IMG/VR virus record: IMGVR_UViG_2698536647_000012
Source of the DNA: a virus
Lineage: Duplodnaviria; Heunggongvirae; Uroviricota; Caudoviricetes
DNA length: 18,232 bases
Reading direction: 5' to 3' (one strand)
Each line of letters starts with the position of its first letter. The first letter of the stretch is position 1. The notes under the pieces were generated by a model, which was given only the letters and a program-made list of their open reading frames with translations, was not told the origin of the DNA and searched no databases. Both the position numbers and the translations under genes were made by a program. Shown here one piece after another: positions 2,963 through 17,422 of the stretch.

Positions 2963-3206
2963 GCTGTTCATTGCTGCTATACACTTTTTTGCTCTCAACG
3001 TAAGCGGTAGCCCATTCTGTTGGGTTGGTGCAGTTGCTTTTAGGAAATGCTATTTACCCCTTAAATGTCGGCTGAAAGAGCTAAAATCCATGCAAAAAAT
3101 TTACGCAATTTTGTGTATTATTGTGCAGTAAGTAATGAGCTATTTTCTGCGCAAAAAATGGATGGTAAATTTGTCCGGGTCAGGAAAAATTTTATGGGCG
3201 CTAAAC

Positions 3207-3737
3207 ATGAAAAAAGATTCGTATCCTTATTTGATTTGCATGACAGTTTCAGGGCTGATCTTTATTTTCCTTTTCTTCTGGTGGCGGGCAGATATCTACA
3301 GGGTCACGTTTCTTAATCAGAGTATATCCCACTATTACATTCTGTTTAGCATGGGAATAGCTTTTCTGTTATCTCTGTTTTGGGTTAAGAAGGGGATAGT
3401 AAAACAAAGAGGCTGGAAGAGTCTGTCAGCATACCTTAAGGTTTATGCAGGGATGTGCATATTTGCTGGATTTTTTCTGATTATACCCCTTACGACACTA
3501 ACTTATTTTTTGCCTGGAGAGACATCGTCTTATGTTGCACCGTATCGGTATACTTCCGGTAGTTCAAAAAGTTGTTCTGGAGCTGAGGTGGATGACCCCG
3601 ATCTACATGAGAATATTCGCATTTGCTATCCGTATGGCAATTATGAGTACGATAATATTATCTATGTTGAAAAGAAAATTAATATATTAGGTGCGGTAGT
3701 GACATATGCACAGACCGCGCGTGATGATACTGAATGA
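3207..3737 (+). CDS. Hypothetical integral membrane protein (about 4 predicted TM helices plus a C-terminal soluble Cys/Tyr-rich domain); accessory cargo gene
   Basis: Longest ORF in a visibly AT-rich block, on the strand opposite the pL operon. Strongly hydrophobic segments (LICMTVSGLIFIFLFFWW, ILFSMGIAFLLSLFWV, YAGMCIFAGFFLIIPLTTL). ATG at 3207 is in frame with the track ORF 3135..3737. No family recognised. Confidence 0.6.
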   Translation: MKKDSYPYLICMTVSGLIFIFLFFWWRADIYRVTFLNQSISHYYILFSMGIAFLLSLFWVKKGIVKQRGWKSLSAYLKVYAGMCIFAGFFLIIPLTTLTYFLPGETSSYVAPYRYTSGSSKSCSGAEVDDPDLHENIRICYPYGNYEYDNIIYVEKKINILGAVVTYAQTARDDTE

Positions 3738-3947: not shown

Positions 3948-4169
3948 TCACTTCGAACCTCTCTGTTTACTGATAAGCTCCAGATCCTCCTGGCAACTTG
4001 CACAAGTCCGACAACCCTGAACGACCAGGCGTCTTCGTTCATCTATCGGATCGCCACACTCACAACAATGAGTGGCAGATATAGCCTGGTGGTTCAGGCG
4101 GCGCATTTTTATTGCTGTGTTGCGCTGTAATTCTTCAATTTCTGATGCTGAATCAATGATGTCTGCCAT
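3948..4169 (-). CDS. TraR/DksA-family C4 zinc-finger protein
   Basis: 73-aa ORF with CxxC...CxxC zinc-finger motif (CCECGDPIDERRRLVVQGCRTCASC), typical of the small TraR-like proteins common in lambdoid early-left operons. Confidence 0.75.
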   Translation of the reverse strand: MADIIDSASEIEELQRNTAIKMRRLNHQAISATHCCECGDPIDERRRLVVQGCRTCASCQEDLELISKQRGSK

Positions 4170-4222
4170 CTTCCATTAATCCCTGAATTGTTGGTTAATA
4201 CGCTTGAGGGTGAATGCGAATA

Positions 4223-4245
4223 ATAAAAAAGGAGCCTGTAGCTCC
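4223..4245 (-). terminator. Weak candidate intrinsic terminator (GGAGC-ctgta-GCTCC plus T6 on the minus strand)
   Basis: 5-bp stem followed on the minus strand by TTTTTT; lies between the 4268..4579 ORF and the TraR-like gene. Confidence 0.25.
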
Positions 4246-4267
4246 CTGATGATTTTGCTTTTCATGT

Positions 4268-4579
4268 TCATCGTTCCTTAAAGACGCCGTTTAACATGCC
4301 GATTGCCAGGCTTAAATGAGTCGGTGTGAATCCCATCAGCGTTACCGTTTCGCGGTGCTTCTTCAGTACGCTACGGCAAATGTCATCGACGTTTTTATCC
4401 GGAAACTGCTGTCTGGCTTTTTTGATTTCAGAATTAGCCTGATGGGCAATGCTGCGAAGGGCGTTTTCCTGCTGAGGTGTCATTGAACAAGTCCCATGTC
4501 GGCAAGCATAAGCACACAGAATATGAAGCCCGCTGCCAGAAAAATGCATTCCGTGGTTGTCATACCTGGTCTCTCTCAT
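4268..4579 (-). CDS. Hypothetical early-left operon protein (start uncertain; an internal ATG at 4483 would give a 71-aa product)
   Basis: ORF in series with the exo/bet operon on the same strand. No family recognised. The first 32 codons overlap the upstream ORF and lack a clear RBS. Confidence 0.45.
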   Translation of the reverse strand: MRETRYDNHGMHFSGSGLHILCAYACRHGTCSMTPQQENALRSIAHQANSEIKKARQQFPDKNVDDICRSVLKKHRETVTLMGFTPTHLSLAIGMLNGVFKER

Positions 4580-4751: not shown

Positions 4752-4912
4752 ACAGCTCCCCGTTTATTATTTATCTCCTCAGCCAGCCGCTGTGCTTTCA
4801 GGGGATTTCGGATAACAGAAAGGCCGGTAAATACCCAGCCTCGCTTTGTAACGGAGTAGACGAAAGTGATCGTGCCTACGCGGATATTATCGTGAGGATG
4901 TTTCATCGCCAT
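4724..4912 (-). CDS. Small lambda-like early protein (orf60a-like, DUF1317)
   Basis: 62-aa ORF ([13 protein letters not shown]...) immediately downstream of exo, overlapping its stop, as in lambda. Confidence 0.6.
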
Positions 4913-5583
4913 TGCTCCCCAAATACAAAACCAATTTCAGCCAGTGCCTCGTCCATTTTTTCGATGAACTCCGGCACCATCTCGTCAAAACTCGCTATAT
5001 ACTTTTCATTCCGCTCAATCACGACATAATGCAGGCCTTCACGCTTCATACGCGGGTCATAGTTGGCAAAGTACCAGGCATCTTTTCGCGTCACCCACAT
5101 GCTGTACTGCACCTGGGCCATGTAAGCCGACTTTATGGCCTCGAAACCACCGAGCCGGAATTTCATGAAATCCCGGGAGGTAAACGGGCATTTCAGCTCA
5201 AGGCCATTGCCGTCACTGCATAAACCATCGGGAGAGCAGGCGGTGCGCATACTTTCGTCGCGATAGATGATCGGGGATTCAATAACATTTACGCCGGAAG
5301 TGAACTCAAACAGGGTTCTGGCGTCGTTCTCGTACTGTTTTCCCCAGGCCAGCGCTTTAGCGTTAACTTCCGGAGCCACACCGGTGCAAACCTCAGCTAG
5401 CAGGGTGTGGAAGTAGGACATTTTCATGTCTGGCCACTTCTTTCCTGATCGGGGCTTTGCTATCACGTTGTGAACTTCTGAAGCGGTGATGACGCCGAGC
5501 CGTAATTTGTGCCATGCATCATCCCCCTGTTCGACAGCTCTCACGTCGATCCCGGTACGCTGCAGGATAATGTCCGGTGTCAT
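4903..5583 (-). CDS. exo: Lambda exonuclease (Red-alpha)
   Basis: 226-aa ORF recognised as lambda Exo along its length; overlaps the bet stop as in lambda. Confidence 0.95.
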
Positions 5584-6365
5584 GCTGCCACCTTCTGCTC
5601 AGTGGCTTTCTGTTTCAGGAATCCAATAGCTTTCACTGCTTCGGCCTGTGTCAGTTCTGACGATGCGCGAATGTCGCGGCGAAATATCTGGGAACAGAGC
5701 GGCAATAAGTCGTCATCCCATGTTTTATCCAGGGCGATCAGCAGAGTGTTAATCTCCTGCATGGTTTCATCGTTAACCGGAGTGATGTCGCGTTCCGGCT
5801 GACGTTCTGCAGTGTATGCGGTATTTTCGACAATGCGCTCGGCTTCATCCTTGTCATAGATACCAGCAAATCCGAAGGCCAGACGGGCACACTGAATCAT
5901 GGCTTTATGCCGTAACATCCGTTTGGGATGCGACTGCCACGGTCCGGTGATTTCTCTGCCTTCGCGGGTTTTGAATGGTTCGCGGCGGCATTCATCCATC
6001 CACTCGGTAACGCAGATCGGATGATTGCGGTCTTTGCGGTAAATCCGGCATGTGCAGGATTCGTTGTCCTGTTCAAAGTCCATGCCGTCAAACTGCTGGT
6101 TTTCGTTGATGATGCGGGACCAGCCATCAACGCCCACCACCGGAACGATGCCGTTCTGCTTATCAGGGAAGGCGTAAATTTCTTTCGTCCACGGATTAAG
6201 ACCGTACTGGTTGGCGACGATCAGCAATGCGATGAACTGCGCATCGCTGGCATCACCTTTAAATGCCGTCTGGCGAAGAGTGGTGATCAGTTCCTGTGGG
6301 TCGACAGAATCCATGCCGACTCGTTCAGCCAGCTTCCCTGCCAGCGTTGCGAGTGCTGTACTCAT
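5580..6365 (-). CDS. bet: Lambda Beta single-strand annealing protein (Red-beta)
   Basis: 261-aa ORF recognised as lambda Bet. Confidence 0.95.
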
Positions 6366-6370
6366 CCGTT

Positions 6371-6667
6371 TTATACCTCTGAATCAATATCAACCTGATG
6401 GTGAGCAATGGTTTCAACCATGTACCGGATGTGTTCTGCCATGCGCTCCTGAAACTCAACATCGTCATCAAACGCACGGGTAATGGCTTTTTTGCTGGCC
6501 CCGTGGCGTTGCAAATGATCGATGCATAGCGATTCAAACAGGTGCTGGGGCAGTCCTTTTTCCATGTCGTCTGCCAGTTCTGCCTCTTTCTCTTCACGGG
6601 CGATCTGCTGGTAGTGACGCGCCCAGCTCTGAGCCTCAAGACGATCCTGAATGTAATAAGCGTTCAT
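6371..6667 (-). CDS. gam: Gam (RecBCD inhibitor), 98-aa form
   Basis: Translation matches the lambda Gam short form ([21 protein letters not shown]...). Reading upstream in frame by hand gives a stop with no intervening Met, so only the short form is encoded. Confidence 0.9.
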
Positions 6668-6742: not shown

Positions 6743-7033
6743 TTAGTGATTGAGGCCGTTACCGCGTCCGTCGAGAAAAACTTCCACGAGCAAATCACGG
6801 GTATAAGTGCGCTCGATGCCGCGATGCAGATAAAGCCGTCCGCGTAAATTAGCTGATGCAGTCCAGGTACCATCTTTGTGTTTGACCAGCATGCCTGGCA
6901 TGACCGCACCGCGATTAACGGTCTGCGTTCCGTAATGTTGATGAACCATAAAAACTCCTGCCCGTAAGCTGGGCTGCTGAACATATAGAGACTTCTGCGC
7001 GTATTCAGGCGGTGGATGGCCGCCGGTTGTCAT
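6743..7033 (-). CDS. Hypothetical protein, first gene downstream of pL (ATG-start version of track ORF 6743..7153)
   Basis: The track ORF starts with TTG at 7153. The first ATG (7033) has a GAGG-type SD upstream and gives a 96-aa product ([13 protein letters not shown]...). No family recognised. It occupies the N/kil/cIII position. Confidence 0.4.
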
Positions 7034-7170
7034 AACTAAGCCGCCTCGTTGAAGCGACTGAGGTATAAAGTGTTGTGTTGATTTCAGCTGGTCACACCGA
7101 CGTTCACGCGTCCGTTTCACCCCTCGCACTCCCCGAAGCCTGCTGAAATTCAAACTGCGGATCTAAGCGG

Positions 7171-7222
7171 TCATCGCAACGGTGAAACAGGTGGTTACCG
7201 TATCGTTGTGTCGTTGCGATGA
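7171..7222 (-). promoter_or_regulatory. Compound inverted repeat at the 5' end of the predicted pL transcript (outer stem TCATCGCAACG/CGTTGCGATGA, nested ACGGT/ACCGT)
   Basis: 11-bp outer inverted repeat with a nested 5-bp repeat and reiterated CAACG/CGTTG and CATCGCA motifs, just downstream of the predicted pL start. Confidence 0.4.
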
Positions 7223-7226
7223 ATTT

Positions 7227-7255
7227 ATTTAAAACTATAGTTGTTTTATCGTCAA
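7227..7255 (-). promoter_or_regulatory. pL candidate (minus strand: -35 TTGACG, 17-bp spacer, -10 TTAAAT)
   Basis: Minus-strand sequence gttgttgacgataaaacaactatagttttaaat is nearly identical in architecture to the pR candidate on the other side of the repressor gene. Confidence 0.55.
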
Positions 7256-7290
7256 CAACAAAAGTTGTTTTATCGGTTGTTTTAAATATA
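7236..7290. promoter_or_regulatory. OL operator cluster (reiterated GTTGTT/AACAAC half-sites, e.g. GTTGTTTTATCGTCAACAACAAAAGTTGTTTTATCGGTTGTTTT)
   Basis: Several direct and inverted copies of the hexamer GTTGTT overlapping the pL candidate; the same half-site forms the palindrome at OR. Confidence 0.55.
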
Positions 7291-7394
7291 ACTGGTTGTA
7301 TTTAGGATGGATTTATTTTGTGACTTGCATCGCATAGCGATAACTGAAGTGAGGTGTGGTGGTTTTTTGGACGGTATGAGTTATGAGGGGGAGG

Positions 7395-7421
7395 AAAAGA
7401 AAACCCGGCGCGGTTGCCGGG
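7395..7421 (-). terminator. Intrinsic terminator of the repressor-lipoprotein transcript (CCCGGC-gcggtt-GCCGGG then T-rich on the minus strand)
   Basis: 6-bp GC stem 9 bp downstream of the lipoprotein stop, followed on the minus strand by TTTTCTTTTCC. Confidence 0.6.
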
Positions 7422-7429
7422 TATGATTA

Positions 7430-7810
7430 TCAGTCAGCCCAACCTGATTTCGAGTTTATTTGGGTTTCTGACATTGTGTATTTCTTAATCGTGTCATCGT
7501 TAAAAAGAATAGTAAGTTCTTTTTTCGTACCGTTCGTTCCATTATGGAATAATCCATAGAATGGAATAAAAGTGGTGCCATTAACTTTTACTTTTGCAAA
7601 GGCGTACTTCCAGATCTCGTTTCCACTGTCAGTATATGAAACAGCATCAGGAGAACCAAAGTAAGATTTAACCTCATTCTTGGTTGTTTTACCTTCCTGA
7701 AGTTTAGACTGGACACTAATTTCAGTTTCATTTTTGAGTTGCTGGTTGCCTGAAGAAGCACACCCAGCCAATACAGATGCCATCATGGCAGCGATTAGGA
7801 TTTTTCTCAT
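7430..7810 (-). CDS. Lipoprotein (signal peptide plus lipobox LAGC), accessory gene in the rex position downstream of the repressor gene
   Basis: 126-aa ORF, N-terminus MRKILIAAMMASVLAGCASS. Same strand as and downstream of the repressor gene, so it would be expressed in the lysogen. Mature part loosely resembles small BamE/SmpA-like lipoproteins; not verified. Confidence 0.7.
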   Translation of the reverse strand: MRKILIAAMMASVLAGCASSGNQQLKNETEISVQSKLQEGKTTKNEVKSYFGSPDAVSYTDSGNEIWKYAFAKVKVNGTTFIPFYGLFHNGTNGTKKELTILFNDDTIKKYTMSETQINSKSGWAD

Positions 7811-8039
7811 TTTATGTTTCCATTCATTATAACCAGAAACATCTTAACATAATGATTCGAAATAAAAACCGCTACGAGATAGGGGGACATTTTGCTGACA
7901 GTAGCAACAAATCTCAGCTAACAACGAGAATATTTACTGAAATATGCAAACAGATTTGGCGTTCTTATAGAGAATTTAGTGCAATATCTAATCCGAGTGG
8001 TATAAATCTTAACCTTCGCTCCCTTAAGTCGTAGATAAA

Positions 8040-8729
8040 TTAACCATGCTTCCTGTACGTCTGCGGCATGCTTCCAATGACCTTACCGAATATGAACACC
8101 CGGTTCATCTCGTCTTTCTCGATCGGGTCCCACGGCGAGTAGCTCTTGTTATCAGAGATAACCAGCAGCTTATCCTTCATCATTTGAAGACGTTTTACAT
8201 GGGCAGTGTCGTCGTACAGAAACGCATAGATGCCATCACCGTCGAAAGATTTAACAGTGATATCAACGAACAGCAGGTCACCTGGTTCGATCGTCCCTGA
8301 CATGCTGTCACCTCGCACGTTAATGATGCGGATATTTTCCGCCTTCCTGCCATCGAACATGTGACGAGCATCGTCAAACGAGTACTCAACCGAGCGTAGA
8401 ACTTCTACAAACTCACGGTTGATTACACCTGGCCCGGCACTGACTTCTATATCAAGAACGTCAATTTTGAAGTATTTGGAATGGCTGACAGTTGATTGTA
8501 TTGGTTGCACTGTACTGTCTGACATATTTCCAACGCCAGAAGATAACCATTCTGCGCGTACACCCAAAGCGTTCGCGATCTCCACGATTTTAGTTGTTTG
8601 GTTAGCTTTCCCTGTTTCGATTTTCTGAATAGCAGCCTGGCTAACCCCGACCAAATCCCCAAGCGCCTTTTGTGTAAGGCCTCGCGCTAATCTGGCTTCT
8701 TTAAGTCTTTCTGAGAGTGTTGTTTTCAT
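8040..8729 (-). CDS. CI-type prophage repressor (N-terminal XRE HTH plus C-terminal S24 LexA-like autopeptidase)
   Basis: 229-aa ORF. HTH segment (LTQKALGDLVGVSQAAIQKIETGK). S24 catalytic motif GDSM (VRGDSMSGTIEPGDLLFVD) and a downstream Lys (AHVKRL). Divergent from the cro-like gene across an operator/promoter region. Confidence 0.9.
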   Translation of the reverse strand: MKTTLSERLKEARLARGLTQKALGDLVGVSQAAIQKIETGKANQTTKIVEIANALGVRAEWLSSGVGNMSDSTVQPIQSTVSHSKYFKIDVLDIEVSAGPGVINREFVEVLRSVEYSFDDARHMFDGRKAENIRIINVRGDSMSGTIEPGDLLFVDITVKSFDGDGIYAFLYDDTAHVKRLQMMKDKLLVISDNKSYSPWDPIEKDEMNRVFIFGKVIGSMPQTYRKHG

Positions 8730-8770
8730 AGATCAAATGTACAACCAAGGTTTTATTTCATCAAACGAAA

Positions 8771-8806
8771 ATGGTTGTTGACTAAAAACAACCATAGTTT
8801 TAATCT
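8771..8806 (+). promoter_or_regulatory. OR/pR: palindromic operator ATGGTTGTTGACTAAAAACAACCAT overlapping -35 TTGACT, 17-bp spacer, -10 TAATCT
   Basis: Perfect 25-bp palindrome with GTTGTT/AACAAC half-sites covering a near-consensus sigma70 promoter aimed at the cro-like gene (start 8834, SD GGAGG). Confidence 0.65.
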
Positions 8807-8833
8807 TGATTCGGATTAACCACGGAGGTTGTT

Positions 8834-9064
8834 ATGAACCCAGCAATCAAAACAGCGATCAATATCGTTGGTTCACAAAAGAAACTAGGCGATGCCTGCG
8901 AAGTTTCACAGCAGGCCGTCTATAAGTGGCTTCACAACAAAGCAAAGGTATCCCCTGAACATGTCGGCAGCATTGTTACGGCTACTGGTGGAGTTGTGAA
9001 GGCATACCAGATTCGCCCGGATCTTCCGAAGTTGTTTCCACACACCGAAAAGAACGCAGCTTAA
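8834..9064 (+). CDS. Cro-like HTH regulator of the YdaS family
   Basis: 76-aa ORF (MNPAIKTAINIVGSQKKLGDACEVSQQAVYKWL...), first gene of the rightward operon with a strong SD; resembles Rac-prophage YdaS-type Cro proteins. Confidence 0.75.
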   Translation: MNPAIKTAINIVGSQKKLGDACEVSQQAVYKWLHNKAKVSPEHVGSIVTATGGVVKAYQIRPDLPKLFPHTEKNAA

Positions 9065-9076
9065 ATTTCCATTTCA

Positions 9077-9088
9077 CGCTCTTTAACA
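9077..9088 (+). promoter_or_regulatory. boxA-like element (CGCTCTTTAACA) downstream of cro, candidate nutR
   Basis: 12-mer matching the lambdoid boxA consensus (CGCTCTT(T)A) in the cro to cII-position intergenic region. No clean boxB hairpin was found next to it. Confidence 0.4.
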
Positions 9089-9133
9089 ATAAGCAATCAA
9101 CTTAACAGTCAATTCAAACTAAAGGAGTCAATT

Positions 9134-9673
9134 ATGCAACCACTTACATACCAACAGACTAGCGGATTTATTCCGACTGCGGTGATAAATCGTTCTCAAA
9201 CAAAACAAGCTCCAGGCCACGAAAAAATCCGTGATGCCGTCCGCGCCTGGTCGGCTGTAGATAATCAGGATGTCGTTGCCGCACTCATTGTGAATGAGTA
9301 TCGGGAGCAGGGCGACGGCACCATCGATTTCCCTGATGATGTCAGCCGTGCACGCCAGAAGCTGTTCCGCTTCCTCGATAACAAATTCGATTCTGAAAAA
9401 TACCGAAATAACGTGCGTGAACTGACCCCGGCAATTCTGGCGGTACTACCGCTGGAATATCGCGGTTACCTGGTTGAGCAGGATAGCTTCATGGTTAGGT
9501 TGGCTGAAATGGAAAAGGAACTCAGTGAGGCAAAACAGGCTGTCATTCTCAACGCACCACGCCACCAGAAACTGAAGGAAATTAGTGAAGGTATTGTGTC
9601 GATGTTTCGTGTGGACCCAGATCTGGCTGGTCCATTGATGGCGATGGTTACTACCATGCTGGGGGCGATATGA
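9134..9673 (+). CDS. YdaT-like protein in the cII position
   Basis: 179-aa ORF with good SD (AAAGGAG). Central segment (ELTPAILAVLPLEYRGYL) resembles Rac-prophage YdaT, which follows the YdaS-type Cro. Confidence 0.6.
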   Translation: MQPLTYQQTSGFIPTAVINRSQTKQAPGHEKIRDAVRAWSAVDNQDVVAALIVNEYREQGDGTIDFPDDVSRARQKLFRFLDNKFDSEKYRNNVRELTPAILAVLPLEYRGYLVEQDSFMVRLAEMEKELSEAKQAVILNAPRHQKLKEISEGIVSMFRVDPDLAGPLMAMVTTMLGAI

Positions 9674-11887: not shown

Positions 11888-11916
11888 TTGACAATTGTTA
11901 CTGAGTCTTGTAAGAA
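11888..11916 (+). promoter_or_regulatory. Candidate sigma70 promoter for the NACHT NTPase gene (-35 TTGACA, 17-bp spacer, -10 TAAGAA)
   Basis: Consensus -35 hexamer with 17-bp spacing to an A/T-rich -10-like hexamer in the AT-rich leader. Confidence 0.35.
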
Positions 11917-11951
11917 TGCACCACGTATTGGTTAATGAATGTGGTGAAAAA

Positions 11952-13847
11952 ATGGATGAGTTTCTTGCGACTATTATTAATAGCACAGTAGGAAAAGCTG
12001 CGGAAAAAATAACAGAAGTATTGCTCTCTAAACCTTGGGCTAGGGACCTAGATGAAGGCAAGGTTATACTCGAACAATTAAATGATCCCCTCGGAAGAGA
12101 AAATTATTTAAGAAAGCATGTGCTACCATCTCTGAAAATGAGAACTTTGCACAACGCTGATTATGATATTTTTTTAGATGATATTTATTATCCGTTAACT
12201 GTTGAGGTGGCATCTAATAAAGACAAGGTCGTTATAAAAGATGGGGTCACTTTACCATTTCATGGTATTGTAAATATAGTCGGTATAGCGGGGCAAGGGA
12301 AAAGTACTATTTTACGCAAGTTGTTTAGCGAGGAAATAAAAAAATCAGAACGGATGCCTTTTTTTATTGAATTAAGAAGGGTGAAGAATGCAAATATTAT
12401 TGCTTATCTGGCAGACATTCTTAATTCATTTGGTGTGGGGTGTTCAGAGGATAGCTTGAAAATATTACTGCAATCCCAAAGAGTCGTTTTAATGTTGGAT
12501 GGATTTGATGAGGTTAAACATGAAGAGCGAACTATGATGATGAATGAAATAAAAAACATTCATTATCATTTTAACACACCAATTATCGCAACAACGAGAC
12601 CAAATACAGATATATGTTATACTACTGATGTGTATAATATTTTTATAGATAAGCTAAATATTTCTGATAAGATTTGTATTCTTCATTCTTTATCGAAAAA
12701 TGACAGATTCTCAAGTAGTGATGCCTCGTTTAAAGTCTTGGCGGATTTACTATGTGATAAAGAAGAACTTGAGGGAACTATTTGCAATCCAATTTTAGTT
12801 ACTCTTTTGTATTATTGTTATCCTTATATGAATGATATTCCAAATAATATAATAGAGTTTTATCGAAGCCTCTTTGACACCTTATATGCAAGGCATGATA
12901 AAATAAAAGTATATACGCGCGAGAAAAAATCAAACATTATTGGTGAAAAAGCTAAATTGTGTTTTTCAGCTATTTGCTATAACGCACTGATTGAGGAGAA
13001 ATTTGAGTTTTGGGGAGAGGAGTTGCTTAGATATGCTGAAGATGCTATTGAAACAGAAGGTTATCTTAAAGAAGATGCATCAAACTTTATAGATGATCTT
13101 ATTGAGATAACTTGCCTTATCCAACCTGAGGGAAATAATAGGTATGTTTTTCTGCATAAATCAGTGCAAGAATTTTATGCTGCTTTTGCGGTAGCAAATT
13201 TACCGATTGAGTATAAAAAAGATATATACGAAAATCTTATGGTGGCTATTAAATGCTCTGAACAGTTAGATAACTTCATGTTGTTTTTACATTCACTAGA
13301 TTCCAAAGCATTTATAGATGAAATCACAATAAAAGCTTCTCGTGATATGGGGGTTGTAGATGTCGCAAACATGACGAGAGAGAGAGTTGAGAATGTTTTT
13401 GACTCGGCACTAAGTAGAGTATTTATCAAAGGCAACTCGACATCGAATGACTCAGTGATTTCGCTTCATTACGACTTTGTATTAGGTTCGCTCTTAGGTA
13501 TTGATATTCTACCTATAATGTCTGGAAAAGAACGAGTTCCTATGACAGAAATTGATTTGATTTTTGACGACCTTTTTTCATGCACGATGGATAAGGGTGA
13601 GTTAAACTTATACAAATTTGAAGTTAAAAAACAAAAAAATAATATTGATACTGATGTTCAGACTGATGATTATTTATTTCCCTTGGTGGATTATCTTAAG
13701 GTCAGGGGGGTTTATGGTTTGATGCTGGATACTTACCATCAGACAATTAAGGATTTTTATGATAGATATTATCAACCAGCTTATGATTCGAATCTTCGAA
13801 GAACACTAGCAATGGGAAGAAATTTCAAGTTAAAGAAAAATAATTAA
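11952..13847 (+). CDS. NACHT-type STAND NTPase (bacterial NLR-like protein), candidate anti-phage defence protein
   Basis: Walker A GIAGQGKST; Walker B of the NACHT type (VVLMLDGFDEV); sensor-1-like IIATTRP; NPxL-type segment (CNPILVTLL); winged-helix signature YVFLHKSVQEFYAAF. Start placed at the second in-frame ATG (MDEFLAT...); the track ORF begins at a TTG at 11895. Sits in a visibly AT-rich island. Confidence 0.85.
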   Translation: MDEFLATIINSTVGKAAEKITEVLLSKPWARDLDEGKVILEQLNDPLGRENYLRKHVLPSLKMRTLHNADYDIFLDDIYYPLTVEVASNKDKVVIKDGVTLPFHGIVNIVGIAGQGKSTILRKLFSEEIKKSERMPFFIELRRVKNANIIAYLADILNSFGVGCSEDSLKILLQSQRVVLMLDGFDEVKHEERTMMMNEIKNIHYHFNTPIIATTRPNTDICYTTDVYNIFIDKLNISDKICILHSLSKNDRFSSSDASFKVLADLLCDKEELEGTICNPILVTLLYYCYPYMNDIPNNIIEFYRSLFDTLYARHDKIKVYTREKKSNIIGEKAKLCFSAICYNALIEEKFEFWGEELLRYAEDAIETEGYLKEDASNFIDDLIEITCLIQPEGNNRYVFLHKSVQEFYAAFAVANLPIEYKKDIYENLMVAIKCSEQLDNFMLFLHSLDSKAFIDEITIKASRDMGVVDVANMTRERVENVFDSALSRVFIKGNSTSNDSVISLHYDFVLGSLLGIDILPIMSGKERVPMTEIDLIFDDLFSCTMDKGELNLYKFEVKKQKNNIDTDVQTDDYLFPLVDYLKVRGVYGLMLDTYHQTIKDFYDRYYQPAYDSNLRRTLAMGRNFKLKKNN

Positions 13848-14029: not shown

Positions 14030-14281
14030 ACGATTTTTTACATTCGGTGTTTTACTTCGACAGCCAGAATTGGGAGTCTCTATTCGTCTGGCGGCTAAAG
14101 GTGATATGGAAATCGTTATGTTTTGGCCTGAGGTAGTTGTAACTGTTGTAGCAGCTATGGCTGTGATCATCATGGTGTCCATTTACTGGGGTTGACGACA
14201 TGATTTATCTGGGGATATATTCTGTGCGTTGCCGCAAAATCGGCACACGGGATTGGCGTCCCGGAATACTACTCAACGCAT

Positions 14282-14303
14282 ACCGCGTTAAGCGGTTTTT
14301 TTA
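14282..14303 (+). terminator. Candidate intrinsic terminator (ACCGC-gttaa-GCGGT then T7)
   Basis: 5-bp stem and 5-nt loop followed by TTTTTTT on the plus strand, upstream of the Roi-like gene. Confidence 0.4.
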
Positions 14304-14458
14304 TGCGCTAAGCACGGCTACGCCCAAATTATGGTGGGCTGTGTGAGGGCTTCTTCGGGAGCGCCGGATTTGAGTAGCCGGTTACGCCAACCTTGCACAG
14401 TTCACCACCAGTCGATTGGCGTCGTTGGTGGTGATGGTTAACCTGATGAGGTGAAACT

Positions 14459-15073
14459 ATGACTACTCAATTAGCATTCCACAAAACGACGTTTACCCCA
14501 ATTTGCCACAATAACAGAATTTGGCTTACTGCCACTGAAGTTGGTTTAGCTCTGGAATATGCGGACGATAAAGCAGTTCAGCGCATTTACTCTCGTCACT
14601 CAGATGAATTTACAGATATGATGACAAGGGTGGTCAAAGTGACCACCCCTCGTGGAATGCAGGACTCTCGAGTATTTAGCCTTCGCGGAGCCCATTTGAT
14701 CGCCATGTTTGCACGAACTCCTGTAGCCAAAGAGTTCCGCCGCTGGGTTCTGGATATTCTCGATCGAGAAGTTCAACAATCCCCGATCACAAAACAATTC
14801 ACTGATAACGAACTTTGCACACTTGCTTGGTTATGGCGAGCTGGGGATGCGATGTTAACCGCCTGCCAGAACGTTACTCCTCTTCTTCAGGTTGCGGAGC
14901 ATCGTGAAGCTGGTCGCTTCACTTCCATCGAGCAAGAATATCCCCAGATACTCACCAGAGCGCGAGCAATCCTCGCCAGAGAAACGGCACATGTAAAATT
15001 CCAGCCGTGGCAGGATGATAAGTGGAGTCGAGTATTGCCACATTTGCGTCAGAATGTTATTAAACAACGTTAG
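14459..15073 (+). CDS. Bro-N domain protein (Roi / antirepressor-like DNA-binding protein)
   Basis: 204-aa ORF with Bro-N-type N-terminal features (RIWLTATEVGLALEY..., ...FRRWVLDIL). SD GAGGTGA upstream. Position between the replication and nin genes, as for HK022 roi. Confidence 0.65.
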   Translation: MTTQLAFHKTTFTPICHNNRIWLTATEVGLALEYADDKAVQRIYSRHSDEFTDMMTRVVKVTTPRGMQDSRVFSLRGAHLIAMFARTPVAKEFRRWVLDILDREVQQSPITKQFTDNELCTLAWLWRAGDAMLTACQNVTPLLQVAEHREAGRFTSIEQEYPQILTRARAILARETAHVKFQPWQDDKWSRVLPHLRQNVIKQR

Positions 15074-16959: not shown

Positions 16960-17044
16960 AGTCAGAGATAACAATCAACTAATACTGTTTTGTTGATTTT
17001 TGCTTGTAATTGGCGTTCTGGTCTGAGTTTTGTGGAGTAAGTTG

Positions 17045-17422
17045 ATGCGTGATATTCAGATGGTTCTTGAGCGTTGGGGAGCGTGGGCGGCTAATAATCA
17101 TGAAGATGTGACCTGGTCGTCCATTGCCGCCGGTTTTAAGGGATTAATTCCTTCAAAGGTAAAATCTCGCCCACAATGTTGTGACGATGACGCGATGATC
17201 ATTTGCGGGTGCATGGCCCGTCTGAAAAAGAACAACAGCGATTTGCATGATTTATTGGTGGACTATTATGTCGGCGGCATGACTTTTATGGCGCTTGCAC
17301 GTAAGCATGGGCGATCTGATTGTTGGGTTGGCAGGATGCTTCAGAAAGCTGAGGGCGTAGTGGAGGGTATGCTGATGGTGTTGGATCTCCGATTGGAGAT
17401 GGATGCTGATTGTTCGAAATAA
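17045..17422 (+). CDS. quuD: Late antiterminator Q (phage 82 / DLP12 QuuD type)
   Basis: Track ORF 17030..17422 begins at a TTG; the ATG giving [22 protein letters not shown]... is the likely start. Sequence recognised as QuuD/Q82-like, followed by a pR'-like promoter and terminator. My hand count of the printed sequence is 1 nt out of register with the track here, so the start is given in the track frame. Confidence 0.85.

Follow-up and report, generated by a model that had tools for sequence, protein, structure and literature searches.

The prophage early region and its left operon

The window (the whole stretch of DNA analysed, 18,232 nt; IMG/VR record IMGVR_UViG_2698536647_000012) holds the early region of a lambda-like E. 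coli prophage. Encoded on its minus strand, in order of rising coordinate, are the integrase and xis (1419-2685), then in the left arm beyond xis a TraR/DksA-like gene followed by orf61, orf63 and orf60a homologues, exo, bet and gam (4903-6667) and kil (6743-6949), the 68-aa product of which belongs to the FtsZ-inhibitor family (phrog_294, E 1e-37). Kil was identified from the PGAP annotation in relatives and by alignment with Kil of HK225, HK639 and phi80; its gene carries AGGAG 5 nt upstream of the ATG and is the first conserved protein gene in the pL operon, so that in this lineage a cell-division inhibitor comes first after pL. To the right lie a BamE-like lipoprotein gene (7430-7810), placed between the S24 repressor gene and OL, the S24 repressor gene itself (229 aa, 8040-8729) and, on the plus strand, a YdaS/Cro-like gene (8834-9064) followed by a YdaT-like 'cII' gene, O, P and morons, with Q at 17030-17422. 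The feature studied here is the promoter-proximal part of the early-left leader, which is about 271 nt long, untranslated and runs straight into kil.

Relatives of the prophage are inserted at the argU tRNA gene beside intD, which is the DLP12 site, and the region is common to the complete phage genomes PhiR26_1, Perceval, 4A7, Lambda_4C10, 1W and 3W. PhiR26_1, whose record describes a complete phage genome and names K-12 MG1655 as the host, is 99.6% identical. The leader was found in 2210 of 5426 complete E. coli genomes at an identity of at least 93%, so that the prophage type whose early-left operon begins with it is among the most frequent in E. coli. Its 150-nt lineage-specific part was found in E. 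coli only: the 25 kil loci compared from other genera, all from species representatives, lack it and have the kil-proximal segment alone in common with the leader, and the power to detect covariation in the leader is therefore low.

A strong intrinsic terminator lies within the early-left operon at 4229-4247 (minus strand), between the orf61-like and TraR/DksA-like genes. A 201-bp query spanning it (4140-4340) was 96.5-99% identical in lambda, 434, 21 and 933W, all of which are N-dependent phages, and three more terminator-like hairpins precede xis. The left arm is thus close to that of lambda and has kept its terminator, yet N and put are both absent, the prophage being a lambda-like, DLP12/Perceval-type element without N/nut and without put. 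The function of the leader bears on how the TraR-like gene, xis and int come to be expressed in this lineage, the outcome being either a new antitermination device or lambda-like phages that manage without early antitermination.

The early-left promoter and the predicted transcript start

Promoters, terminators and folds were predicted by consensus or by energy. The early-left promoter pL was found on the minus strand (7227-7255) at the site given in the original prediction, with a -35 element TTGACG (7255-7250), a 17-nt spacer and a -10 element TTAAAT (7232-7227), and is a near base-for-base match to pR (8775-8815). Half-sites of the form GTTGTT/AACAAC flank both promoters; the OL operator (7233-7306) is made up of them, reiterated as direct and inverted repeats like the OR palindrome GGTTGTTGACTAAAAACAACC.

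The promoter region was compared across more than 120 further leader-bearing loci from IMG/VR and E. coli genomes, the IMG/VR loci having been fetched by exact patterns, so that the matched bases are fixed and the variation seen is biased. Five unrelated operator/promoter cassettes join one leader: type A (this window), type B (Perceval), type C (O157) and types D and E. In every cassette the -10 element ends 6 nt before ATCGCAAC, generalised as AT(C/T)(G/A)C; the four other types have a TTGAYN-17-TATTRT-like promoter at the same 6-nt distance from the common leader, and across the five cassettes similarity or stem complementarity to that leader starts 7 nt past the -10 element. The same promoter-to-start geometry is found at pL of phi80, HK225, HK639 and lambda. 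Because the -10-to-leader distance is shared by the five cassettes and the related phages, the pL transcript is predicted, from the cassette junctions and the geometry of relatives, to start at A7220 on the minus strand. By this placement, and by the parallel with pR, the inverted repeat noted just downstream of pL does lie at the 5' end of the pL transcript.

The predicted start coincides with a 21-nt initial transcribed motif (7200-7220, minus strand) common to the pL transcripts of phi80, HK225 and HK639. The alignment of this motif (CATCGCAACGACACAACGATA), which begins one base upstream of the predicted start, has 18 of 21 positions identical and a score of 27, against 16.4 +/- 2.4 for shuffles (maximum 25; z 4.4). 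Since the motif is common to phages with N (phi80) and with put (HK639), it is not tied to one antitermination system, and judged from these alignments the predicted transcript start is a shared pL feature rather than part of any one such system. Local mini-hairpins at +1 in lambda and phi80 were thermodynamically marginal. Two other candidates at this position were considered and rejected: a plus-strand terminator or promoter at the repeat, because the T-run and TATAGT box belong to the type-A cassette only, and a sigma-dependent pause hexamer AACGAT at +14 to +19, which is not kept in types D and E.

A short inverted repeat upstream of OL

A short inverted repeat, ATCGC-ATA-GCGAT, occupies 7329-7341 between the cI-operon terminator and OL. 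It had been described as a palindrome (ATCGCATAGCGAT) in which CATCGCA recurs about 110 bp upstream of the leader repeat. The repeat exists, but its 5-bp arms flank a 3-nt centre and it is not a full palindrome; repeats of this 5-3-5 size are estimated to occur many times by chance in 18 kb. CATCGCA does recur (7 occurrences in the window against 2.2 expected), which is weak evidence for an upstream link. The short repeat is present in cassette types A, B and D, is absent in C and E, and belongs to a conserved terminator-spacer module of about 130 nt that is separate from the hairpin and parts OL from whichever moron follows cI. The intrinsic terminator of the cI/BamE-like lipoprotein transcript (7403-7422, minus strand) is likewise kept whatever moron lies upstream. 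Nothing ties the upstream repeat to the hairpin. Published prophage sRNAs were also considered and rejected as counterparts: svsR lies at the cI 3' end, and four of the five Pas sRNAs were described beside late-region genes (holin/lysozyme, sialic acid esterase, Q).

These observations bear on the binding site for a second regulator raised in the original prediction. As a DNA-level site it would use ATCGC half-sites in the hairpin arms and in the upstream repeat. The half-site does recur, and types A, B and D have both elements, but the spacing differs (3 bp in one element, 38 bp in the other), type E has the hairpin without the upstream repeat, the +1 motif is common to phages with unrelated regulators, and the recurrence of the half-site is not statistically notable. 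Variants of the hairpin moreover pair through G-U, which in DNA is a mismatch. A regulator site is for these reasons considered very unlikely.

The inverted repeat and hairpin H1

The 11-bp inverted repeat TCATCGCAACG/CGTTGCGATGA is perfect, with arms at 7171-7181 and 7212-7222 and 30 nt between them, and the nested ACGGT/ACCGT pair is present at 7179-7183 and 7197-7201, as first described. Three perfect 11-bp inverted repeats with a loop of up to 60 nt were observed, against 0.28 expected per shuffled window, and the repeat is therefore not a chance feature. RNA folding, proposed earlier as a check, gave a 54-nt hairpin of -19 kcal/mol (z -4.4; none of 200 shuffles reached this stability). 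With the predicted start at A7220, the transcript would include just 9 of the 11 bp. The transcribed form, a 5'-terminal stem-loop here called H1 (7173-7220, minus strand), has arms AUCGCAACG (7220-7212) and CGUUGCGAU (7181-7173) and a predicted energy of -14.7 kcal/mol (z -2.4). The DNA-level inverted repeat at H1 spans 7171-7222, and the interior of H1 is variable.

Every variant folds with a stem that reaches from +1 to the 3' arm GUUGCGAU, by different means. In the commonest variant G7212 is replaced by A, which leaves an 8-bp stem of -8.6 kcal/mol that is no more stable than shuffled sequence (z -0.6). In types D and E, 8-nt insertions (indels) come with another inner stem; the interior of type C is AU-rich and unrelated, and the type C 5' arm AUUGCAUCG pairs at 8 of 9 positions by way of a G-U pair. 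H1 of Perceval starts with G-U, that of PhiR26_1 has a stem mismatch, and pair 9 is G-C in this window, A.C in most copies and A-U in two. Across 11 variants 85.6% of stem cells were paired, with G-U wobbles and one both-sided swap (G-C to A-U), although a formal count of covariation was not above the shuffle control. The wobbles and the swap are valid on the transcript strand only and point to an RNA-level rather than a DNA-level feature, in agreement with the earlier suggestion of an RNA-based element.

Nucleotide diversity (pi) was computed from the distinct sequences of type A/B copies, whose prophages recombine. In H1 the 3' arm hardly varies (0.0035), the 5' arm reaches 0.050 with variation at +1 and +9 alone, and the interior, at 0.039, resembles the third codon positions of gam (0.039) and kil (0.053) and so varies at about the synonymous rate. 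The constraint on H1 falls on the stem only, while the interior drifts. Pairing of the H1 loop with the kil Shine-Dalgarno sequence was rejected, the match by eye being 4-6 of 6 bases and inconsistent across types.

The remainder of the leader

The interval from pL to kil contains neither a conserved protein gene nor a terminator, no terminator-like site being called on the minus strand of 6950-7222. The leader comprises, in order, H1, a 23-nt linker (pi 0.030), H2, a G-free tract, H3, H4 and the kil ribosome-binding site. H2 (7081-7149, minus strand) is an inverted repeat predicted to form a three-way structure closed by AUUUCAGCAGG and CCAGCUGAAAU (-25.9 kcal/mol, z -2.05); it is weakly constrained (pi 0.023, or about 0.03 without the search anchor). 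The G-free, C-rich tract that follows (7059-7084, minus strand) is 26 nt long, has a rut-like composition as read from the sequence, carries a +5 TCAAC indel and is the most variable part of the leader (pi 0.087). H3 (7030-7068, minus strand) is a hairpin enclosing the ATG at 7033 (-13.6 kcal/mol, z -3.6), in which five of six variable pairs are kept paired through G-U. H4 (7008-7024, minus strand) is the hairpin GGCGG-CCAUCCA-CCGCC and lies at a mosaic joint. An intrinsic attenuator, one of the functions proposed earlier for the element, is contradicted by the lack of a U-tract after either H1 (followed by CCGCUUAGAUCC) or H2 (followed by CAACACAAC).

For the whole 5' part of the leader, fold z-scores were not significant; RNAalifold on 63 variants returned an unstable long-range fold with no pair changed on both sides; and Rfam gave no gathering-level match in the leader, the best sub-threshold hits (E 0.5-4) being chance matches. 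The strongest constraint of the leader lies in its kil-proximal 110 nt. H3-H4 and the remaining kil-proximal part (7007-6950) each have a pi of 0.008, like non-synonymous sites (0.006-0.009 at positions 1 and 2 of kil and gam), and any specific control of kil expression would probably be held in these kil-proximal hairpins (7068-6950).

Only about 7069-6989 of the leader is common to other phages. H3 is the first part of this kil-proximal segment, which was found by Blast in phi80, HK225 and HK639. In phi80 and HK225 the segment lies directly 3' of the intrinsic terminator tL1, which is preceded by N in the former and by three small ORFs in the latter; the HK639 copy of the segment comes after an annotated putL-like RNA, two ORFs and two terminators. 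The lineage-specific 150 nt therefore occupy the position that in relatives is taken by N or put together with tL1. This arrangement would suit a functionless recombination scar, left by the deletion of tL1 together with N (or put), the hairpin being an incidental product carried along with kil-gam-bet: the shared segment follows directly on tL1 in phi80 and HK225, whereas here it follows 150 nt found nowhere else, the ORFs in protein databases break at the same joint, and H2 and the H1 interior are weakly constrained. The H1 3' arm, however, is almost invariant, the stem has survived 8-nt indels in types D and E and, independently, the exchange of its 5' arm in type C, and the leader has been recombined onto five immunity cassettes, each time exactly at +1. 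A scar is accordingly judged unlikely. Since every copy comes from E. coli and is 93% identical or more, conservation may nonetheless be partly hitch-hiking.

N, nut and leader open reading frames

The original prediction described a TTG-initiated ORF (7153-6743) with its first ATG at 7033 and an Arg-rich stretch (RLRGVRGVKRTRERR), downstream of pL and unlike any N gene. The ORF is as described, and no N gene was found. The leader ORF had no Pfam match and its sole significant PHROGs match was Kil, none of nine other left-arm ORFs matched an antiterminator family in PHROGs, and N is not annotated in PhiR26_1 or Perceval, the two records inspected. An N remnant was also rejected: homologues of the Arg-rich peptide were found at this locus alone, both by a word-indexed search and by an exhaustive HMMER search of 1.84 billion representatives. 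The reading frame itself is not maintained. C7060T introduces a stop in about 45% of copies, cutting the peptide to 20 aa, and frameshifting indels occur at five positions: +5 (7082), -1 (7028), -2 (6996), +1 (6955) and +1 (7124). The Arg-rich ORF is thus an orphan and not a conserved protein.

No nut site is present in the leader either, which has neither boxA nor boxB. No boxA was found within 3 mismatches in 6950-7222, nor within 1 mismatch in the leader of 104 loci. The single perfect boxA of the window (9077-9089) lies after cro, is found in type-A immunity only and is followed by no hairpin-forming sequence. A minimal N-like system, in which an Arg-rich peptide would bind a leader hairpin as the arginine-rich motif of N binds boxB, could draw on this boxA and on KRTRERR, which we take to resemble the arginine-rich motif of lambda and P22 N. 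Against it stand the lack of any N family match in Pfam or PHROGs and of a homologue beyond the locus among the 1.84 billion representatives, the truncation to 20 aa in about 45% of copies, a leader without boxA, and a right-hand boxA without a hairpin and restricted to type-A immunity. Such a system is largely refuted and is regarded as extremely improbable.

A shorter ORF within the same region was also considered. It starts at a GTG (7058-7120, minus strand) with GGAG 8 nt upstream, encodes (M)KRTRERRCDQLKSTQHFIP followed by Q or a stop, and is open for at least 20 codons in nearly all copies; the start codon is ATG in 20 copies and is lost in only one of about 125. Its translation across the G-free tract (7084-7059) might govern Rho loading, or coupling to kil, in the manner of a leader-peptide attenuator. 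Consistent with this are the ribosome-binding sequence and retained start, four synonymous changes among the six common SNPs in codons 2-20, and the tolerance of stops and frameshifts after codon 13-21, which would be expected if only the act of translation mattered. The bias between codon positions, however, lacks significance (5 sites at position 1, 1 at position 2 and 5 at position 3), the D-type copy has the changes R to C, Q to H and K to E, indels are not depleted, and the Arg codons coincide with a CG-rich hairpin that would yield Arg codons regardless. A translated leader ORF is rated as a rather unlikely explanation.

Comparison with put RNAs and antitermination

The putL RNA is located just downstream of an early promoter, at or near the 5' end of the transcript (PMC9378689), and H1, which lies at the predicted +1, has a similar position. 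HK022-type put was among the identities suggested for the element. Rfam holds no put family. Put elements were retrieved from IMG/VR by a degenerate pattern, many of the contigs having one L-type and one R-type copy on opposite strands, separated by about 1.2 kb, and a covariance model was built from 16 aligned putL/putR sequences; the consensus tested comprised a GAACGGC loop, GUCGG, GGCGKG.UCA, CAAU and two stems. The model scored HK022 putL at 99.4, HK639 putL at 83.8 and HK022 putR at 76.7 bits. It had no match at E<=10 anywhere in the window or in loci whose leaders are of types B-E; an unfiltered search gave 4 bits at best across 6800-9300 and reported no match inside 7038-7380. A resemblance to putL seen by eye (19 of 24 nt and a GACG/CGUC stem) was rejected because its score fell within the shuffle range. 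No second copy of the leader was found downstream of pR, the window holding nothing beyond chance words of 8-14 nt, and the cro-cII gap there is 69 nt, G-poor and unstructured. With no match to the model, a different architecture and no right-operon copy, membership of the put family is rejected at the level of sequence and predicted fold.

The element might instead be a new cis-acting processive antiterminator RNA, unrelated to put but acting in a put-like manner, in which nascent H1/H2 RNA would stay on RNA polymerase and carry it past the lambda-type terminators of the left arm. Put itself needs no phage protein and suppresses termination in cis by way of the beta' zinc-binding domain. The left-arm terminators persist downstream, which keeps such an RNA in consideration: the strong terminator at 4229-4247 is kept in a segment near-identical in N-dependent phages, three more terminator-like hairpins stand before xis, and the lineage lacks N, yet PhiR26_1 was deposited as a complete phage genome. 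The element also sits at +1, as putL does, and the same slot holds put in HK639 and N in phi80. The put model nevertheless found no match, there is no copy downstream of pR, the O157-type cassette swaps the 5' arm and interior, the fold z-scores of the 5' part are not significant, and the H1 interior and H2 vary at near the synonymous rate, whereas put loops are invariant. Since put loops and bulges are invariant, the element fits an RNA polymerase-binding aptamer poorly, and we consider antitermination by it distinctly improbable. The genes past the terminator would have either their own promoters or an unrecognised device, for which the leader is the obvious candidate, although one that the data do not favour and that is quite doubtful. 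Were it nonetheless to prove true, which seems a slim prospect, H1-H2 would join put and EAR among the RNA-only processive antiterminators as a third class unrelated to either, and N would not be needed to express a lambda-type left arm, with its terminators, in a prophage lineage present in about 40% of sequenced E. coli.

A candidate 5'-terminal protective stem-loop

The reading that best accommodates these observations, and that is put forward tentatively, is a 5'-terminal protective stem-loop on the untranslated leader of the kil operon. Transcription would begin at A7220, and the first 9 nt (AUCGCAACG) would pair with CGUUGCGAU 30 nt downstream, so that the pL RNA would carry a stem-loop with no unpaired 5' nucleotides. 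The stem-loop may then shield the long untranslated leader of kil-gam-bet-exo from 5'-end-dependent decay, a stabilising role suggested by analogy with stem-loops that prolong mRNA half-life in dependence on RppH and RNase E. H1 would also mark a boundary for the exchange of immunity cassettes. What makes a protective stem-loop the best fit is that the stem starts from the first nucleotide, the loop varies freely and the untranslated leader is long. A7220, the predicted start, is the first stem base in five cassettes, within the 0-2 nt expected of a stem at the 5' end, and the stem persists although the loop varies, as the paired fraction and the contrast in diversity between the 3' arm and the interior indicate. 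Against a protective role are the weak stem of the commonest variant, with its 8 bp and -8.6 kcal/mol, the mismatch in PhiR26_1, covariation no higher than in the shuffle control and the close relationship of all copies.

Comparison with known systems

The leader resembles the N leaders of lambda and phi80 in its promoter geometry and, in the case of phi80, in its initial transcribed motif, and the left arm that it heads has the same kil, gam, bet, exo, orf60a/63/61, terminator and TraR-like gene. It differs in having neither N, boxA/boxB nor tL1, and kil is here the first gene, whereas in lambda and phi80 it lies downstream of a terminator. The perfect boxA after cro recalls boxA-only (rrn-type) Nus antitermination; unlike in such a system, that boxA is in the right operon, occurs with one immunity type only and is absent from the pL leader.

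The put phages HK022 and HK639 are, like this prophage, lambdoid, without N and with an element directly 3' of the early-left promoter, and in HK639 put is flanked by the +1 motif and the kil-proximal segment found here. The put element, however, consists of two adjacent stem-loops of about 70 nt with invariant loops, whereas the present leader has a 48-nt hairpin, then a 23-nt linker, then a 69-nt branched fold, and their interiors drift. H4 in HK639 is followed by a T-run and annotated as a terminator, while here no T-run follows it.

The 5' UTR of ompA reportedly carries a 5'-terminal stabilising stem-loop of E. coli mRNA, a finding credited to Emory, Bouvet and Belasco in 1992. Although H1 differs from stabilising stem-loops of this kind in that its commonest variant has a weak stem, it is like them in that it heads a long untranslated leader, its stem begins at the predicted +1 and conservation is confined to that stem.

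Kil-proximal segment of the leader

The segment of the pL leader closest to kil (6989-7069, minus strand), which is common to the lambdoid phages phi80, HK225 and HK639, shows the strongest constraint anywhere in the leader (nucleotide diversity among copies, pi, 0.008). It contains a short ORF that starts with MTTGGHPP(P) at ATG 7033, which is in frame with kil in the window and is 21 aa long in phi80 and 20 aa in HK639. In some copies a 1-nt deletion destroys the peptide and the hairpin is kept. The database ORFs P0001-P0003 are chimeras whose break point falls exactly at this segment. Within the AAUCAAC(AC)AAC tract of the leader, a 5-nt duplication of TCAAC at 7082 (minus strand) was found in four distinct sequences (loci L052, L063, L075 and L120). 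The leader is also present in the chromosome of E. coli NC101 (match H131, NZ_CP047057.1 1409151-1409293), and a recent report describes an sRNA, svsR, encoded at the 3' end of cI in the NC101 lambdoid prophage NC-SV (PMC12803456).

boxA downstream of cro

The window contains a single exact boxA match, the perfect consensus CGCTCTTTAACAA at 9077-9089 (plus strand), directly 3' of cro and followed by no boxB-like hairpin. This perfect boxA is restricted to loci with the type-A immunity cassette, the window's own (47 of 104 loci), and boxA was never found in the pL leader across the 104 loci. 3' of the right-hand boxA, an AAUCAAC..AACA string at 9092-9110 is similar to the tract of the leader that carries the 5-nt duplication.

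Terminators and other inverted repeats

Between the orf61-like and TraR/DksA-like genes lies a strong intrinsic terminator (4229-4247, minus strand), within a stretch of 201 bp that lambda, 434, 21 and 933W share at 96.5-99% identity. Three further terminator-like hairpins (2716-2962) lie between the pL operon and xis/int, which are also separated by an opposite-strand gene of 200 aa (3135-3737). Apart from the one in the pL leader, perfect 11-bp inverted repeats with short loops occur twice in the window, at 1330-1365 and 12368-12428 (0.28 expected in total).

Accessory genes

A conserved module of ~130 nt (7310-7430), comprising an intrinsic terminator (7403-7422) and a spacer with ATCGC-ATA-GCGAT, is retained between the operator region OL and differing morons downstream of cI. 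The window has a BamE-like lipoprotein there, and its relatives have ASCH-domain, SIR2-family or membrane proteins. The module looks like a fixed slot for moron insertion.

The 650-aa ORF at 11895-13847 (plus strand), with a P-loop (GIAGQGKST) and its own promoter-like site, matched solely PHROGs families that have no assigned function. Its place is that of a defence gene annotated PD-lambda-1 in the related phage PhiR26_1, which makes it a possible defence moron.

Rfam matches placed isrK (60.7 bits) and C4 antisense RNA (72.4 bits) in tandem at 14230-14412 (plus strand), just upstream of a 204-aa ORF (14459-15073); at the corresponding position PhiR26_1 has a gene annotated as Rha. We take the tandem and this ORF, in the nin region, to resemble the c4/ant module of P1 or the IsrK module of Gifsy-1.
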